NCBI GenBank assembly: GCA_903845155.1
Contig: CAIMWN010000266.1
Span: 3,517-67,516, forward strand
Direction: 5' to 3'
Source of the DNA: Oligoflexia bacterium
Lineage (GTDB): Bacteria > Bdellovibrionota > UBA1018 > CAIMNF01
DNA length: 64,000 nt
Position 1 is the stretch's first letter; every line of letters begins with the position of its first letter. The notes beneath the pieces were generated by a model. The model had not been told where the DNA came from and did no database searches. It worked only from the letters and a program-made list of their open reading frames with translations. Both the position numbers and the translations under genes were made by a program. Below are positions 6,309-53,112 of the stretch, piece after piece.

Positions 6309-8096
6309 ATGAAGCCAATTAGACTTCGTATTCTCGTAATAGCCGGCCTTGCAATTTCTATTGCGGCTTTCAGTGGATGTACCAATAAAAACGGAAATAA
6401 TGCCAATGTGCTCCGCGTGGGCTTGAAAGATGATGTTAAAACTCTCGATCCTGCTAATGCTTATGATTCGGTAGCGGCGGAAGTTCTCCCTAATATTTAC
6501 GATACTTTTCTTCAGTATAAGTATTTAGAAGATCAAATGACTCTAGAGCCTTTACTTGCAGATGGAATGCCCGAGTATTCAAAAGATGGTCTCACTGTAA
6601 CGGTAAAACTGAAAAAAGGTGTCCTGTTCCAAGATGATCCATGTTTCAAAGCGAACGGCGGCAAGGGCCGTGAATTAAAAGCTCAGGATTTTATCTTCGC
6701 TTTCAAGCGTCTAGCGATTCCAAGCATTCAGTCACAAGGCGCATGGGTGTTTGAAGGAAAGTTAGTGGGCTTTAATGAGTTCGAAAAATCTTTGGCGCAA
6801 GCCAAGGGCGATGAGTATCAAAAACTATTTGATGCGGGAATTTCAGGTGTAGTGGCTAAAGATGACTATACAATTGAGCTTAAGCTGACTCAGCCGTACC
6901 CGATTTTGAATTATATTTTGGCGATGTCGTTTACCTCGCCCATTCCAAAAGAATCGGTGGACATGTACGCAGACAAAGATGGGAACCTTCGTGACCACCC
7001 CGTTGGAACTGGCCCCTATACTTTGAAGAGTTGGGAAACCAATCAAAAAATTATTCTCGTAAAAAACCCTAACTTTAAGGGAACCTATCCTTCAGTGTCT
7101 GGTTCTGAAGCGTTGAAAGGTGCTGGCTTTCTTACCGATGCAGGAAAAGCGCTTCCCTTTATTGAAACGCTGCAATTTGAAGTGATCAAAGAAGATCAAC
7201 CCCGGATTCTTAAATTTGAAAAAGGCGATCTCGATACTTTTGAACTCAGTAAAGATAGCTTTCGTGCATCCATGGCCGATGCAACCCATTTGAATGATGA
7301 TCTGGTTAAAAAAGACGTGGTAGCCGAACACGAGAACTCATTGGTGACTACCTGGGTTGGGTTTAATATGAAGGACAAAATTCTTCAAAATAAATATCTT
7401 CGCCAGGCCCTTTCGTCCGCCATTGATCGTGAAAAATGGATTGATACATTCGAAAAATACATGGGCGAAAAACAAACAGAAATGTGCCCTACGGGACTTG
7501 CAGATCGTGTGGAGAGCAAAGCCATTAAATATGATCTGAATTTAGCGCGAGCAAAAGAGTTAATGGTCAAGGCCGGCTATCCAGAAGGAAAGGGACTCCC
7601 GACCCTCAATATGGATTTCCGAGGAGTGGAAACTCGTTATCGTCAAATGGGTGAATTTTTTGTTCAGCAATTTGGTGCAATCGGCGTGAAAGTAAATGTA
7701 ATCCTCAATACCTTCCCCTCTTATTTAGAAAAAGCGAAGCAGGGTAATTTACAAGTCTCCTATGGTAGTTGGGTGTTTGATTACCCCGATATCGAAAATG
7801 GATACCAATTGCTTTATGGTCCTAACAAATCGCCAGGCCCCAACGATTCAAACTGGGAAAACTCCCAATATGATGCTCTTTATAAAAAACTAGCGATCAT
7901 TCCTGCAGGTTCAAAAGACCGGCAGCAGTTGGCGAAGCAGATGGAAGATATTATTCAAGAAGAGGCTCCTTGGGCCTATGGTTACTTCAAGAAGACTTAC
8001 CGTCTAAGGCAGGGGAAAGTTAAAAACTTCCGTGTAGTAGAGTCAATTGCCAATAAGTACAAGTATATGCGTTTGGAGCAAGTTACAAAAAAATAG
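6309..8096 (+). CDS. ABC transporter substrate-binding lipoprotein, family 5 (peptide/nickel type)
   Basis: Lipobox AFSGC. The ~590-aa length and sequence character resemble OppA/DppA-like solute-binding proteins. No permease gene is adjacent. Confidence 0.65.
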   Translation: MKPIRLRILVIAGLAISIAAFSGCTNKNGNNANVLRVGLKDDVKTLDPANAYDSVAAEVLPNIYDTFLQYKYLEDQMTLEPLLADGMPEYSKDGLTVTVKLKKGVLFQDDPCFKANGGKGRELKAQDFIFAFKRLAIPSIQSQGAWVFEGKLVGFNEFEKSLAQAKGDEYQKLFDAGISGVVAKDDYTIELKLTQPYPILNYILAMSFTSPIPKESVDMYADKDGNLRDHPVGTGPYTLKSWETNQKIILVKNPNFKGTYPSVSGSEALKGAGFLTDAGKALPFIETLQFEVIKEDQPRILKFEKGDLDTFELSKDSFRASMADATHLNDDLVKKDVVAEHENSLVTTWVGFNMKDKILQNKYLRQALSSAIDREKWIDTFEKYMGEKQTEMCPTGLADRVESKAIKYDLNLARAKELMVKAGYPEGKGLPTLNMDFRGVETRYRQMGEFFVQQFGAIGVKVNVILNTFPSYLEKAKQGNLQVSYGSWVFDYPDIENGYQLLYGPNKSPGPNDSNWENSQYDALYKKLAIIPAGSKDRQQLAKQMEDIIQEEAPWAYGYFKKTYRLRQGKVKNFRVVESIANKYKYMRLEQVTKK

Positions 8097-8145: not shown

Positions 8146-8406
8146 ATGAGTATTCGTTTTTGGCTGCTATTTAGTTTATGCAGTTATGTTATGCCTGCGA
8201 GTGCATCGACTCGGAACCCAAATGGTTCTGAGCGTTCACTTTTGTATTGGCGTTACTTATGCGAAAATCTGCCACAGACGGAAAATGTGCAAGGTAATAC
8301 GCGTGAGTTTTCATGCCCCTCCCTCAATTGGAAGGTGCGCACTCAATATAATTCACAATTAAAGGAAGAATCGGTTCGGGAGGTCACTGAAAATGACAGC
8401 CATTAA
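8146..8406 (+). CDS. small secreted protein, unknown; carries RNPNGSERSLLYWRY motif
   Basis: Signal peptide MSIRFWLLFSLCSYVMPASAST. Overlaps the next gene start by 14 nt. Confidence 0.45.
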   Translation: MSIRFWLLFSLCSYVMPASASTRNPNGSERSLLYWRYLCENLPQTENVQGNTREFSCPSLNWKVRTQYNSQLKEESVREVTENDSH

Positions 8407-9343
8407 ACTTGTTGTTCTTCTCTCCCTCGTGACTTCGTGTAGTCCGGTTCTTTCAAAGAGAACGGATGAGCAAGCGTGGAACGATTATCAACGAGACTTA
8501 AAGCTCCGCCGCGAGCCTGCATCCAGCTCCGCCGACAGTAAAAAAACGCCTACCATTAAGTCTTCAGATTCTCTCTTACAGTTAAAGTCGCTTCTCGCTG
8601 TTGCACCAGTGAGAAAAATTCTCTTGTCATGTTTAGGCTCTGAGCAAATGCCGGCATGTTACCAGGCTAAGTTGACTTTGCAATTTGACGAAGCCTATAG
8701 AAAAACAGCCCTACCCAATGATGCTACTTACAAAACCGAACAAAAAAACTTTTTTCAGGAACGATCCTTTGAAAATGTATCCAATGAAGTACGCGAATTT
8801 CATCAACTGTTGTTGTCTGGAATGGATTTAAGAGCAGCGGATCACATCCGTGAACTTTACGCAGATTGCGAGTATTCATCTAAAGATCAAACTGTAAATC
8901 TGGAATTTAAACCATTCTTGGCCAGTAATAGTTATATTCCAAAAAATGATTATGCTTGTATCAATTCAAACTGGGATCAAAACGAAAGTAAGTTGCTGAG
9001 TGAAACCACCAGTCGTCTAGGGCTCATTATTGAAACAGTGGAAGCACAAAATTGGATCATGCAAATGAATATTTTTCCTGTGTATGTTCAAGAGCTGAAC
9101 GCCTTGCTTGCGAAAAAATCCAATGATGAACAGAATTCGTGGAACAACAACAGTAGCGAGATTAGAGAAAAAATAAAACCTTCGAATGAGTTATTGAAGC
9201 GTGGCCCCGGTGAATGTGTTGCCCAGACGCTGAAAAAATGGACACCTATACTGCGCATGGGGTACGCACACTTTCCTGTGGAAATTCCCTTAACTGAGCT
9301 TGCAAATACTTGGTGCAGCCCTACTCATTTGAGTAAAAAATGA
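8393..9343 (+). CDS. lipoprotein, unknown function
   Basis: Lipobox LVTSC. 316 aa. ATGA overlap with the next gene. Confidence 0.5.
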   Translation: MTAIKLVVLLSLVTSCSPVLSKRTDEQAWNDYQRDLKLRREPASSSADSKKTPTIKSSDSLLQLKSLLAVAPVRKILLSCLGSEQMPACYQAKLTLQFDEAYRKTALPNDATYKTEQKNFFQERSFENVSNEVREFHQLLLSGMDLRAADHIRELYADCEYSSKDQTVNLEFKPFLASNSYIPKNDYACINSNWDQNESKLLSETTSRLGLIIETVEAQNWIMQMNIFPVYVQELNALLAKKSNDEQNSWNNNSSEIREKIKPSNELLKRGPGECVAQTLKKWTPILRMGYAHFPVEIPLTELANTWCSPTHLSKK

Positions 9344-9798
9344 AATACCTTTTTACACCCTTGCTGCTGATCGCGCTCAACTCCTGTACCAAGAATGCCG
9401 TGACAGCGGTCAGTGTTTCTGATGAAACCCATCTTAAACAAACAAAAATTCAGTTGGTGGGGGATCTAAAGCAAAAGGGCGTTTTTGATTCAATGCAGGC
9501 ATCATCCATTAACAGTCTTTACGAAGTGGTGACAAGCAAACAGGGTGAAAAATATTTTATTAAAGGTGGATTAGTAGTCAGTAGCAGCCGTAATCCCAAG
9601 GAGAGTGAAAGCACGCTTCTTTATTGGCGATACCGGTTTCAAGGTAAGGGGTACCGAGAAATAGATGTTCAGAGCGACAAGCCCGACCCTCACGTGCATT
9701 TACTGAAGCAAGTATTCTGTGATGCTTTGGGCATGGGGGTAATTTTCAATCCGGAAACAGAAAGAGTAACGAGGGTGTTTTATTATGAAACACCATAA
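9340..9798 (+). CDS. lipoprotein, unknown; carries RNPKESESTLLYWRY motif
   Basis: Lipobox ALNSC. 152 aa. Shares a 15-aa motif with the 8146 ORF. Overlaps the next gene by 14 nt. Confidence 0.5.
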   Translation: MKYLFTPLLLIALNSCTKNAVTAVSVSDETHLKQTKIQLVGDLKQKGVFDSMQASSINSLYEVVTSKQGEKYFIKGGLVVSSSRNPKESESTLLYWRYRFQGKGYREIDVQSDKPDPHVHLLKQVFCDALGMGVIFNPETERVTRVFYYETP

Positions 9799-12208
9799 AT
9801 TGAAATCGATAAAACATCGGTTTATGATTGTTCCGCAAGTCCTTTTTGTGGTTTTTTCGGTGTTAATATTACTGTTTACGTTGATTAGGCATGATATTCA
9901 AATCGAGAAAACGAAAGCTCTTTGGTCAAAGGTGGAGCAATGGTCTCCAAATGTTTTGAGTTCTCAATTCCGTGGACCCGCCCAAAACCTTCCTCGTTGT
10001 TTCATGGATCGTATCAAACCAGACTATCTCAAGTCCGAAATTGCCCGGATGGAATCTCAATACCCGGCAGCCGCGAAAACAGCATTTCAGCATGGTGTTC
10101 TTTCCCTGACGGGATTGTCTGAACCCGCTTTATCCATACTTAAAGATAAAACGATGTTAGATGATAAAGTTCAGCAAAGTTGGATCACCTCAGACCCAAG
10201 GCAAAAAGACTGCCACGATTTTCCCTGTATAATCAATGCACTCTACCCTCGGGCAAGTGATGAGGGAGACCTGAGCTATTGGTTTTATCTCAAAACCGGC
10301 TACTTCATGTCGGCGCAAAATTTTCACTATTGGTATGACGATGGTAAGTCAAGCATCCTCACTCCTCCTGGGTATACTCTTGAGCAATACCTGTTTAGTG
10401 AAAGCGAATGGAAGGCCTGGTGGTTGGTTGCGAATAGCCTTCCTAAAGCAATGTTGCATATGACAGCACTCAATAGTATTCATCGTCTGCCGAGAGGGTA
10501 CCTTCCTGAAAGTTGGAAACTGAGCGAAATTGAGAGTACTTGTGGTATCTCGGTGGGAAATTGGGGCAGAGGAGTGGTCCTTCTCCAGGATAAGTGTTTG
10601 AGTCTCGATTCGAAAAACATATTTGACACCCAAGCCGCATTTTATCCCTCGACCACCCACGAGATGGCTCATCGATTATCGGCGTGGAATTTTGCGAAAG
10701 ACAAAAAGCCCGCGCGTGAAATGGAGGAAGATCCGACATTCCTAGCCGCCTCTGGGTGGACAAAGGAAGAACTCATTGAGGCAGCAGTGCCTGGTAAGAG
10801 TGAGAAGATAGTCACTATTCAGTGGAAATACGCTCAACCCGAAAGAGAGTTCATGTCCGATTATGCACGAACGAACCCGGCCGAAGATTTTGCAGAGAGT
10901 GTGGGTTACTACCGGAATAGTCCCGAGCAGATGGCAGAAAAAGCGCCGCTTAAATATGCCTTTTTAAAAGATAAAGTCTTTTCGCATCTTGGATATTCGA
11001 GCGACGATTTAAAAATGCAATATGTGAAGGACGTAAAGAAAAATTTAATGGATCAGGTAGATGTTTGGGTAAAGCCTTGCACCAATCCACTTCCGTCCGC
11101 CTTGACTCCTGCACCTCACCAGACTCAGATCGCACTCGCCGCCCCACAAATTAAGATGGATATTCCCGTTAACGAAGAAGTGAAATCATGTTTGAGAAGT
11201 CAAATGATTACACAGATCGGAATAGCTCTGGATCAAATTCGATACCAAGAGCCCGAAGGTTGTCAGACGATAGATTCGCATGAAAAAGAAATCCTACAAT
11301 CGATCGTCAATCAAGAAGTTCCTGAGGTGGTTCAATACCTAAAGGGCGATGATCAGATTACGGGCTTGATCGCGGGTGTTCAAGAATTCCGAAAAGCATT
11401 GGGCAGTGATTTTGATGGAAGAGGAGCGATTTTAATGTGCTGGCAGGCTACCGACCCAGCACAATGTTACTCCGATAAATCGGAATTGGAATATGAGCGA
11501 GTGTTTCAAAAAAATAAAACCTTACTTTCCACTACAACGCTTTCATCCGCCATCGTACTAGAAGCTGAGAAAGTTCATTTTTTGGAGGCTAACGATTACG
11601 ACACGACACTCGAAAAAGTAGTCAACTTCTACAATTCTATTTATGCGCCCTACGAGGATCAACTGACAAAAGACACGCGCGAGCTTTGGTTGAGCTGCAT
11701 GCATGAAACTAAGAGAAGTGATTCTTTTATCCCTCTCCTTGCGCCCTACAATGCAGGAAACGAGTATGTAGCCCCTGAAGTCATTCAATGTTTGAACGAT
11801 AAAATACCTGGCGAACTCACCTCACTGCGAGCACTTGCGGGGTCAAGCTTTGGTATTGCCGTGAAAACCAATGATGCAAAAAATTGGATTAACACTCGAA
11901 TTCTTTTTCCAAAAATGAAAGCACTTCTGGATGCTAGCCTCATTGATGCAGAACAAACAGAAGTTCAAGTGCTTGAGCAGACGAAGAAGGAAATTATGGA
12001 CCGGGTGGTAGAAAACTTAGTTCAAGATCGTTCTTGGCGCACGAATGCCAATCAAACTGTTAACGCTTGCCAGCCCACGGCTTTAGCGAAATTGAATCTT
12101 GAATTTAGCCAATATATTTATCGATTTACGAGCATGGGTCCGGTACTGGCAGATTTAGTCGATGTGGTTTGCAAGCGCGTGAATGCCCGGATTTATACTC
12201 ATTTGTAA
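9785..12208 (+). CDS. membrane-anchored large protein with HExxH motif (putative zinc metallo-domain), unknown function
   Basis: N-terminal TM (VPQVLFVVFSVLILLFTLI). TTHEMAHRL HExxH motif. Many Cys. 807 aa. Confidence 0.5.
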   Translation: MKHHKLKSIKHRFMIVPQVLFVVFSVLILLFTLIRHDIQIEKTKALWSKVEQWSPNVLSSQFRGPAQNLPRCFMDRIKPDYLKSEIARMESQYPAAAKTAFQHGVLSLTGLSEPALSILKDKTMLDDKVQQSWITSDPRQKDCHDFPCIINALYPRASDEGDLSYWFYLKTGYFMSAQNFHYWYDDGKSSILTPPGYTLEQYLFSESEWKAWWLVANSLPKAMLHMTALNSIHRLPRGYLPESWKLSEIESTCGISVGNWGRGVVLLQDKCLSLDSKNIFDTQAAFYPSTTHEMAHRLSAWNFAKDKKPAREMEEDPTFLAASGWTKEELIEAAVPGKSEKIVTIQWKYAQPEREFMSDYARTNPAEDFAESVGYYRNSPEQMAEKAPLKYAFLKDKVFSHLGYSSDDLKMQYVKDVKKNLMDQVDVWVKPCTNPLPSALTPAPHQTQIALAAPQIKMDIPVNEEVKSCLRSQMITQIGIALDQIRYQEPEGCQTIDSHEKEILQSIVNQEVPEVVQYLKGDDQITGLIAGVQEFRKALGSDFDGRGAILMCWQATDPAQCYSDKSELEYERVFQKNKTLLSTTTLSSAIVLEAEKVHFLEANDYDTTLEKVVNFYNSIYAPYEDQLTKDTRELWLSCMHETKRSDSFIPLLAPYNAGNEYVAPEVIQCLNDKIPGELTSLRALAGSSFGIAVKTNDAKNWINTRILFPKMKALLDASLIDAEQTEVQVLEQTKKEIMDRVVENLVQDRSWRTNANQTVNACQPTALAKLNLEFSQYIYRFTSMGPVLADLVDVVCKRVNARIYTHL

Positions 12209-12635
12209 AATGCAGACTGGTAATTCTCTTTTCTGGAAATAATGGCAAGTATTTCCGTGAGAATTTTGTGTTAGGCAGAGGGTTGATTGATCTCCTGTAC
12301 CCCAACCACAATAATTTCTCCTGCACTATCTTCTTCGTAGATCCGTCGATATGATCGATTGATTCTGATTGATCGCTGTCCGCTCATTTTGATGTACTGT
12401 ATTTATAAGTACATTGTAATTGAGAAAATCCCCTGTATTGTTGCGCGGCTATTTCCTGTTGAATGCATTTGGCTTCAACCTCCGCGGTCCACTGTCAAAA
12501 ATTCGTCGTTTTTGTCCAATTTTTTATAAATTAAAGCTGTGTCCTGAAATACCCGAAGAGTGAATAGGAGCAAGGAAGCACCTTAATATAGGCCCACGGA
12601 TGTGCCGGAACTTCGTCTATATGGAGGGACGGACC

Positions 12636-13061
12636 ATGACTAAAATGAATTTTAAACCAGTGCATTACCTTGCCATTGTGTTTTCGCTATTCACCTTTAT
12701 TTCTTCAGTCTTTTATTCAAAAGCGGTGGCGGAGGAATCAAACGTTTATCAGGTTTATCGATCGATTGATTTGGGTGAAACCGACGTAGCACCCCCCAAA
12801 GATATTTTTATTAGTATGGGAACTTCAGAAGGCATCAAAAAGGGATCGATCCTGGATGTTTATCGACGAGTTTCTAGCTTCGATAATCTCACGCAAAAAC
12901 ATATGGGCGATCATATGATTCCTGTTGGCCGAATTAAAGTCATTCATGTAGATGAGAAAACAGCGATTGCAAGAGCGGATCGTTTTGTGTCAATCGATCA
13001 AGAGCCAGCGTTGCTGCCGCAAGCAGTGATGATTGGTGATGTAGTTCGCAAATCGGAGTAA
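12636..13061 (+). CDS. secreted hypothetical protein
   Basis: GGAGGGA Shine-Dalgarno sequence 6 nt before the ATG at 12636. Signal peptide MTKMNFKPVHYLAIVFSLFTFISSVFYSKAVA. Confidence 0.45.
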   Translation: MTKMNFKPVHYLAIVFSLFTFISSVFYSKAVAEESNVYQVYRSIDLGETDVAPPKDIFISMGTSEGIKKGSILDVYRRVSSFDNLTQKHMGDHMIPVGRIKVIHVDEKTAIARADRFVSIDQEPALLPQAVMIGDVVRKSE

Positions 13062-52944: not shown

Positions 52945-53023
52945 TCTTTATAGAAATCAGTTGATAGAGAACTGAACTTCTGATAGGAATTAAATCTCTA
53001 TTTTTTTCAAAAATGAGTGAACG

Positions 53024-53096
53024 AGCCCTTAGCTCAGTTGGTAGAGCATTTCACTTTTAATGAAAGGGTCGATGGTTCGAATCCATCAGGGCTCAC
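53024..53096 (+). tRNA. tRNA-Lys (anticodon UUU)
   Basis: Cloverleaf folded by hand. Acceptor GAGCCCT/AGGGCTC. D-arm GCTCAGTTGGTAGAGC. Anticodon loop CTTTTAA. T-arm GATGGTTCGAATCCATC. CCA encoded. Confidence 0.9.
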
Positions 53097-53112
53097 CATT
53101 TTTGAAAAAAGT

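Follow-up and report, generated by a model that had tools for sequence, protein, structure and literature searches.

Two paralogous gene modules of a Bdellovibrio-like bacterium pair small LLYWRY proteins with large Cys-rich envelope proteins, one of which carries a predicted zinc-peptidase domain

Introduction

Secreted or periplasmic zinc proteases can be encoded beside a small periplasmic protein that binds them, as is the serralysin AprA with its inhibitor AprI/Inh. The zincins closest to the case considered here are lethal factor (LF) and the PPEPs (M34, ATLF), MtfA (M90), and the Peptidase_Mx1/Mx lipoproteins of Bacteroidetes (PF15890/PF15887; 4l7a; TIGR04549, 9urd). Mx1 proteins are single-domain, about 260-330 aa long and associated with SusC/TonB transporters, and PPEPs have been reported from Firmicutes only (PMC8610288). 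In this work, we analyse four overlapping genes, ORF1 to ORF4 (ORF, open reading frame), at positions 8146-12208 of a 64,000-nucleotide stretch (the window) of contig CAIMWN010000266.1, from the Oligoflexia bacterium assembly GCA_903845155.1. A preliminary description had regarded their products as four separate unknowns. We replace this picture with one in which ORF1 resembles the C-terminal half of ORF3, and ORF2 resembles ORF4 minus its peptidase core. Comparison of the sequences makes it near-certain that the four genes constitute two paralogous, translationally coupled two-gene modules, each encoding a small LLYWRY protein and a large Cys-rich envelope protein. As an overall reading, we lean towards ORF4 being a partner-controlled envelope metallopeptidase that works with ORF3, and ORF1-ORF2 being a non-catalytic derivative of that pair.

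Results

Two coupled modules related by paralogy

The genes and their main features, all on the forward strand, are the following.

8146..8406, +: ORF1, 86 aa, predicted secreted; LLYWRY 'C-wing' domain only, behind a signal peptide
8212..8256, +: ORF1 motif RNPNGSERSLLYWRY, at the predicted mature N-terminus
8393..9343, +: ORF2, 316 aa, predicted lipoprotein (LVTSC), without peptidase domain
9340..9798, +: ORF3, 152 aa, predicted lipoprotein (LNSC); two tandem helix-plus-four-strand wings
9589..9633, +: ORF3 motif RNPKESESTLLYWRY; LLYWRY is the C-wing helix, residues 93-99
9785..12208, +: ORF4, 807 aa, membrane-anchored; signal-anchor helix, zincin peptidase domain and Cys-rich all-helical domain
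10172..10984, +: ORF4 zincin (gluzincin-type) peptidase domain, residues ~130-400
10658..10672, +: ORF4 HEMAH (H292, E293, H296), presumed zinc ligands and catalytic base
10877..10897, +: ORF4 PAEDFAE (P365, E367, D368), with the presumed third zinc ligand Glu, cf. lethal factor and MtfA
11420..12175, +: ORF2-like part of the ORF4 helical domain, residues ~546-797

The four lengths and the overlap positions given in the preliminary description are exact in the ORF list, where ORF1/ORF2, ORF2/ORF3 and ORF3/ORF4 overlap by 14, 4 and 14 nt. Both modules have the same junction, with the ATG of the large gene placed within the last codons of the small one (tATGAnnnnnnnTAA, the 14-nt overlap) and preceded by a purine-rich stretch that is encoded by conserved V-R-(E)-V codons; the modules are joined to each other via the 4-nt ATGA overlap of ORF2 and ORF3. 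The G+C content is even over the four-gene region (41-46%), and promoter and terminator scans returned counts equal to those of shuffled sequence. Export signals were judged by simple sequence rules only, and these match the one signal peptide, two lipoboxes and one transmembrane helix by which all four products had been proposed to be exported: ORF1 has a hydrophobic N-terminus followed by a predicted cleavage between ASA and S, ORF2 and ORF3 have lipobox-type sequences (...LVTSC and ...LNSC), and the N-terminal hydrophobic segment of ORF4 is Cys-free and is modelled as a long helix (residues 17-53).

The link between the small proteins starts from their shared motif, RNP...LLYWRY, which the preliminary description had reported, with the correct codons, as a sign of selection on the peptide rather than of recent duplication. 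Our comparison agrees and points to an old paralogy under purifying selection. BLASTP finds 12/18 identities over ASTRNPNGSERSLLYWRY in ORF1 and SSSRNPKESESTLLYWRY in ORF3 (E = 6e-7), and the 45-nt motif regions are identical at 29/45 positions, 10 of the 16 differences falling at third codon positions. The whole mature length of ORF1 aligns with the C-terminal half of ORF3 (~84-152) in an alignment that takes in the motif, one conserved Cys and the V-x-(R/E)-V at the C-terminus, and a hidden Markov model (HMM) built from ORF3-type proteins only recovers ORF1-type ORFs at five loci with E = 5e-5 to 3e-7. On these alignments, ORF1 is the second wing of ORF3 alone behind a signal peptide.

The large proteins are related in the same manner. 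Residues 74-261 of ORF2 align with residues 546-741 of ORF4, with E = 9e-12 in the window and, for the same relationship in another genome, 2e-8. Each of the six Cys that ORF2 has outside its lipobox is aligned with a Cys of ORF4 (552, 561, 638, 669, 762 and 796). An ORF2-only HMM matches 93/152 ORF4-family proteins, always at the equivalent position, and, reciprocally, an ORF4-only HMM matches ORF2s at 1e-17 to 4e-34. In addition, ORF2 has at its N-terminus a lipobox segment (...C-x(4-7)-D-[ED]-x(2)-W, then R-x-P-[AS]) that matches the ORF4-family N-terminus. By sequence, ORF2 is thus ORF4 minus the peptidase core, consisting of the lipobox segment and the helical domain only. The N-wing and the peptidase core have been lost together in ORF1-ORF2, the C-wing and the helical domain have been retained together, and only the second copy, ORF3-ORF4, keeps the zinc-protease domain.

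A divergent zincin domain in ORF4

Exhaustive searching by HMMER, using a profile of two sequences, returned 818 relatives of ORF4, of which 246 reach E <= 1e-10 and 116 reach E <= 1e-30; the majority are 850-950 aa long and alignable over most of their length. The single homolog found by a word-index search had suggested an orphan family, which proved misleading; that search missed even the self-match because the 90%-identity cluster of ORF4 is represented by a 41-aa fragment.

The single HExxH motif and the many Cys of ORF4 that had been noted correspond to one HEMAH (292-296) and to 14 Cys. Residues H292, E293, H296, P365, E367, D368, C638 and C669 are invariant in a 52-member alignment. 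ORF4 has the HExxH plus downstream Glu that characterise the zincin superfamily (LF/PPEP M34, MtfA M90, Mx1/Mx), and its catalytic domain has the zincin alpha/beta fold in an AlphaFold2 model of the protein (predicted local distance difference test, pLDDT, 88.5; predicted template-modelling score, pTM, 0.87), the closest folds being those of PPEP, anthrax lethal factor, MtfA and Bacteroides Mx1. Pfam matches among the 52 members are to Peptidase_Mx1 (28 members, best 5e-9), Mx (22), M90 (15) and ATLF (4), and the family profile finds in the PDB 4l7a (7e-5) and MtfA 9srw (3e-3), and also 3dl1 and 9urd. Foldseek with whole ORF4 gave no significant PDB match, and the TIGR04549 model scores 14.5 bits on ORF4, with a cut-off of 75. 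The HExxH domain is a divergent member of the lethal-factor/PPEP/MtfA/Mx1 zincin superfamily, with zinc binding and peptidase activity as predicted properties. The former statement that no known family could be assigned to any of the four proteins is therefore superseded for this domain, which is placed at superfamily level, and holds for ORF1-3, which have no credible Pfam or NCBIfam match.

The rest of ORF4 is dominated by a disulfide-rich helical domain of ~400 aa, whose structural matches are generic helices only. Among 133 full-length members, each of the 14 Cys is retained in 84-100%, a pattern that fits seven disulfides in an oxidising compartment. A home-made rule assigns a lipobox to 82 of these members and, to 28, an uncleaved hydrophobic anchor like that of the window protein.

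These data also bear on a non-proteolytic explanation, in which the proteins would form a structural or scaffolding envelope complex with the helical domain and the C-wing as its essential parts and the zincin domain as an accessory binding module. Such a complex would be consistent with the C-wing and the helical domain being the only parts common to both modules, with C638 and C669 of the helical domain being conserved in 133/133 members, with the position of the Bdellovibrio-like locus among housekeeping and Tol-Pal-region genes, and with the absence of catalytic residues from some members: a membrane-anchored subclade (~10/152 representatives, e.g. P0099, L041 4001-6709) has lost HExxH and the downstream Glu and probably consists of pseudo-peptidases. 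However, HExxH plus Glu is intact in 135/152 ORF4-family sequences, besides its invariance in the 52-sequence alignment, and this retention speaks for catalysis being under selection in most lineages. We hold a purely structural role to be unlikely and favour a peptidase controlled by its partner.

Two further features of ORF4 were observed. Residues 63-76 (window 9971-10012), a low-confidence stretch of the model, carry a near-invariant R-x-P-A...P-R-C-F-x-D-R motif, the R-x-P-[AS] part of which is kept in ORF2 homologs; we take its 'PRC..D' to be reminiscent of the cysteine-switch pro-peptide of metalloproteases. Moreover, the window protein (807 aa) lacks a C-terminal extension of ~120 aa that its nearest relatives possess (904-930 aa: P0001, P0034-38, L008, L043). 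The spacer between ORF4 and the next gene (window 12209-12635) is 427 bp, vs ~100 bp in L001; tblastn detected no remnant of the extension in it, and no Rfam family lies there.

A double-wing lipoprotein and its single-wing derivative

The ORF3 model, computed from 39 sequences (pLDDT 86.8), consists of two tandem helix-plus-four-strand units, an N-wing (~residues 34-84) and a C-wing (~85-150). Its structural neighbours, with their Z scores, are YjgB (8.4), two SCP-associated domains (7.8 and 7.6), YfeY (7.5), TsiN, a type VI secretion system (T6SS) immunity protein (6.8), YdcD (5.8), OsmE (5.6), the BLIP-like 3d4e (5.5), BtiO (5.2), BLP (5.1), BamE (4.9) and BLIP (4.5). In this model, ORF3 has the BLIP-like/SmpA_OmlA (BamE) double-wing fold and is a known fold in a new sequence family: it has no Pfam match at E <= 1 to PF07467, PF04355 or DUF4309, PDB sequence searches with the ORF2 and ORF3 families found no match, and hhalign detected no sequence similarity between the N-wing and the C-wing in an internal-repeat test. 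Pfam, NCBIfam and PADLOC returned nothing credible for ORF1-3; weak matches to HTH_22, DsbC_N, PagP and CspBA were dismissed as noise. A broad word-index search with ORF3 contributed only 9 further proteins.

Across 39 ORF1/ORF3-type sequences, seven residues of the motif region (R, P, E, L, Y, W, R) are invariant or at least 90% conserved. The ORF1-type proteins, which fall into at least 26 clusters, are 68-110 aa long, have two conserved Cys and share the signature (A-x-A)/R-x-P-x(3)-E-x-S-L-L-Y-W-R-Y-L-C...C-P-S-x-x-W-x-V...V-x-E-V, the slash marking the predicted signal-peptidase cleavage. In ~20/26 of them, the invariant Arg follows this A-x-A site at a distance of 0-2 residues. Such an arrangement would be consistent with ORF4 cleaving ORF3 between its wings, before the invariant Arg84-x-Pro86, so that the C-wing would become soluble and separate from the lipid-anchored N-wing; ORF1, paired with the peptidase-less ORF2, would then be 'pre-cleaved', signal peptidase leaving the same Arg-x-Pro, and the loss of the N-wing and lipid anchor does coincide with that of the peptidase domain. 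Nevertheless, the wings pack in the model into a single compact unit that is predicted with confidence, and translational coupling at fixed stoichiometry is more usual for the partners in a complex than for substrates. The catalytic-motif-less subclade (L041) furthermore keeps a full-length, two-wing partner, which weakly favours binding over processing. We judge processing of this kind improbable, and continue to regard ORF3 as a partner that binds and controls ORF4.

Distribution, pairing and genomic context

ORF3 and ORF4 form an ancient unit whose two genes are obligately linked and translationally coupled. Their overlap is 8-14 nt in the window and in L001, L003, L008/9 and L043. Five sampled distant ORF4-family members (L038-L042), with 33-67% GC and otherwise unrelated neighbours, have an ORF3 homolog in 5/5 cases (E 1e-9 to 1e-18 with the first profile), each a lipoprotein of 139-158 aa whose gene overlaps by 8 or 14 nt, and every full-architecture ORF4 relative whose context was read is paired with an overlapping ORF3 homolog. 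A metagenome scan with an 11-sequence ORF4 alignment retrieved 27 loci which, apart from L008/9, share only the peptidase domain with ORF4 and have other architectures; no ORF3-like neighbour accompanies these peptidase-domain-only proteins (L010-L034). Among 152 family proteins, no ORF3-ORF4 Rosetta-stone fusion was found, only signal-peptide noise.

In Bdellovibrio-like genomes, the module occupies a slot with alaS and an orphan SBP_bac_5 gene on one side and a 140-aa gene, ssb, ribD and pal on the other. Its occupancy varies as follows.

All four genes: window/L035, L003, L043
ORF2-3-4: L001/L002
ORF3-4 only: L008, L009
ORF1-2 only: L004-6, L007, L044

Among the loci analysed here, the four-gene form is found in three lineages only, all in this slot: the window's own population (window, L035), L003 and L043. 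ORF3-ORF4 is the ancestral module, widespread in uncultured bacteria, and ORF1-ORF2 a reduced copy. The preliminary description had treated the four genes as one operon; the widespread unit is the ORF3-ORF4 pair. Orthologs in the slot have diverged to 30-43% identity. The relatives of the window are labelled as Oligoflexia or Bdellovibrionales metagenome-assembled genomes, and the window population has also been assembled in several 'GROS21-1' samples in ENA.

Given the immunity protein among the structural neighbours of ORF3, one may ask whether ORF4 is an exported toxic protease and ORF3 its cognate immunity lipoprotein. The context speaks against this. The association with secretion or trafficking and the variable, mobile locus that mark polymorphic toxins and T6SS effector-immunity pairs were not seen in 12 contexts, in which neither secretion-system genes nor Rhs/PAAR or mobility genes are adjacent. 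The proteins of the ORF4 family have a membrane or lipid anchor, the Bdellovibrio-like site is syntenic among housekeeping genes with orthologs that have diverged in place to 37% identity, and PADLOC gave no match. An effector-immunity role is very unlikely, and control of ORF4 by ORF3 as an envelope partner remains our preferred reading.

Several observations concern the neighbouring genes. The SBP_bac_5 gene (window 6309-8096) encodes an oligopeptide-type solute-binding lipoprotein, lies 49 bp upstream of the module without adjacent permease or ATPase genes, and stands between alaS and the module wherever the upstream region is present (window, L001, L003 with its 3' end only, L004, L007, L008, L043). 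Downstream, a gene for a conserved exported protein of ~140 aa (window 12600-13061; same-gene calls on identical contigs start at 12636 rather than 12600), with a weak Pfam FlgT_C match (E 1e-3), follows the module in all Bdellovibrio-like loci with a downstream region and not in distant ones. L007 has two extra genes (6856-7891, minus strand; 241 aa with a weak HTTM match, and 107 aa) between SBP_bac_5 and its ORF1-like gene. L036 differs from the window at the junction of ORF1 and ORF2 by a ~48-bp deletion (~2075-2086; window ~8366-8425) that leads to calls of 82 aa and 231 aa, and L037, from the same population, has two indels at this junction; these may be real variants or assembly artefacts. 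A tRNA-Lys(TTT) gene (window 53023-53098) is the sole RNA gene found by Rfam/ARAGORN in the 64-kb window.

Discussion

Our analysis supports the proposal that the genes encode a dedicated envelope module, conserved and comprising a probable metalloprotease together with its partner proteins: no characterised housekeeping family accounts for the four proteins, and the operon and its motif are found in related genomes. We propose a mechanism in which the two products of each module would be made in a fixed ratio and assemble into a 1:1 periplasmic complex. The C-wing may dock on the helical domain, because both survive together in ORF1-ORF2, and the N-wing may interact functionally with the peptidase domain, because both were lost together. 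Through this contact, the N-wing would either hold the peptidase in check or present its substrate, acting as an inhibitor, gate or adaptor. ORF1-ORF2 may act as a scaffold, decoy or regulator without catalysis. The binding-and-control step of ORF3 and ORF4 is moderately likely; control of the peptidase by the N-wing would follow the analogy of BLIP-type inhibitors and of the partner-controlled MtfA.

Some observations weigh against this proposal. The non-inhibitory BamE, OsmE and YfeY match ORF3 at similar Z, so its fold does not imply inhibition. The catalytic-motif-less protein of L041 still has an overlapping partner that includes the N-wing, and L001 retains ORF2 without ORF1; together with the ~10/152 members devoid of the catalytic motif, the latter indicates that neither catalysis nor strict pairing is universal. 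Finally, the window ORF4 falls under every Pfam gathering threshold: 23.1 vs 26.2 bits for M90 (PF06167), 17.1 vs 25.6 for Mx1 (PF15890), 15.9 vs 27 for Mx (PF15887) and 15.7 vs 27.4 for ATLF (PF07737), with matches limited to the HExxH-to-Glu region.

It is also conceivable, albeit quite unlikely, that ORF3 would be at once the stoichiometric keeper and the substrate of a lethal-factor-like peptidase. Cleavage before Arg-x-Pro would then set free the LLYWRY C-wing, which would serve the helical domain as a soluble ligand, and ORF1-ORF2 would be a hard-wired, protease-independent ligand-receptor pair, with the same N-terminus produced via signal peptidase. If true, this would be a new kind of envelope protease system.

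The system is no categorical surprise, and its function is one that we infer. What the analysis defines is a sizeable unannotated protein system with a testable architecture: a predicted lethal-factor/MtfA-like zinc peptidase tethered in the Gram-negative envelope and coupled to a lipoprotein with a predicted BLIP/BamE fold. ORF1-ORF2 vs ORF3-ORF4 constitutes a natural 'deletion series' that predicts domain contacts and can thereby guide experiments with unusual directness. ORF1, ORF2, ORF3 and the ORF4 helical domain are not covered by any Pfam or NCBIfam model, the source names retrieved for proteins of the system are all 'hypothetical protein', and literature searches found no paper on the ORF1-4 family. 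These searches turned up no earlier description of the helical domain, of the ORF1 and ORF2 families, of the obligate pairing or of the reduced paralogous module. The carriers that could be identified are Bdellovibrio-like (Oligoflexia, Bdellovibrionales), a group in which envelope proteases and their control are of interest with regard to predation and envelope remodelling.

Comparison with known systems

ORF4 is 16-20% identical to the LF/PPEP (M34, ATLF) and MtfA (M90) zincins over ~160-180 aligned residues. Unlike these enzymes, it adds a helical domain and seven potential disulfides, and it is membrane-anchored in a Gram-negative envelope. It likewise differs from the single-domain Mx1/Mx lipoproteins in its extra helical domain and its obligate ORF3 partner, and, in contrast with TIGR04549, defined as a 'substrate import-associated zinc metallohydrolase lipoprotein', it has no TonB-dependent neighbour, the genes around it being alaS, SBP_bac_5, a 153-aa gene, ssb and ribD. 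The likeness to AprA-AprI is a functional analogy only, as the protease family (M10), the inhibitor fold (an eight-stranded beta-barrel) and the gene order all differ from those of ORF4-ORF3. On the side of the partner, the double-wing proteins BLIP, BLP, BamE, OsmE, YfeY and YjgB (DUF4309), as well as the T6SS immunity proteins TsiN and BtiO, have no sequence similarity to ORF3. The R-x-P...E..L-x-Y-W-R signature is specific to the ORF3/ORF1 family, which, unlike the BLIP/BamE-type proteins, includes a single-wing secreted form, ORF1.

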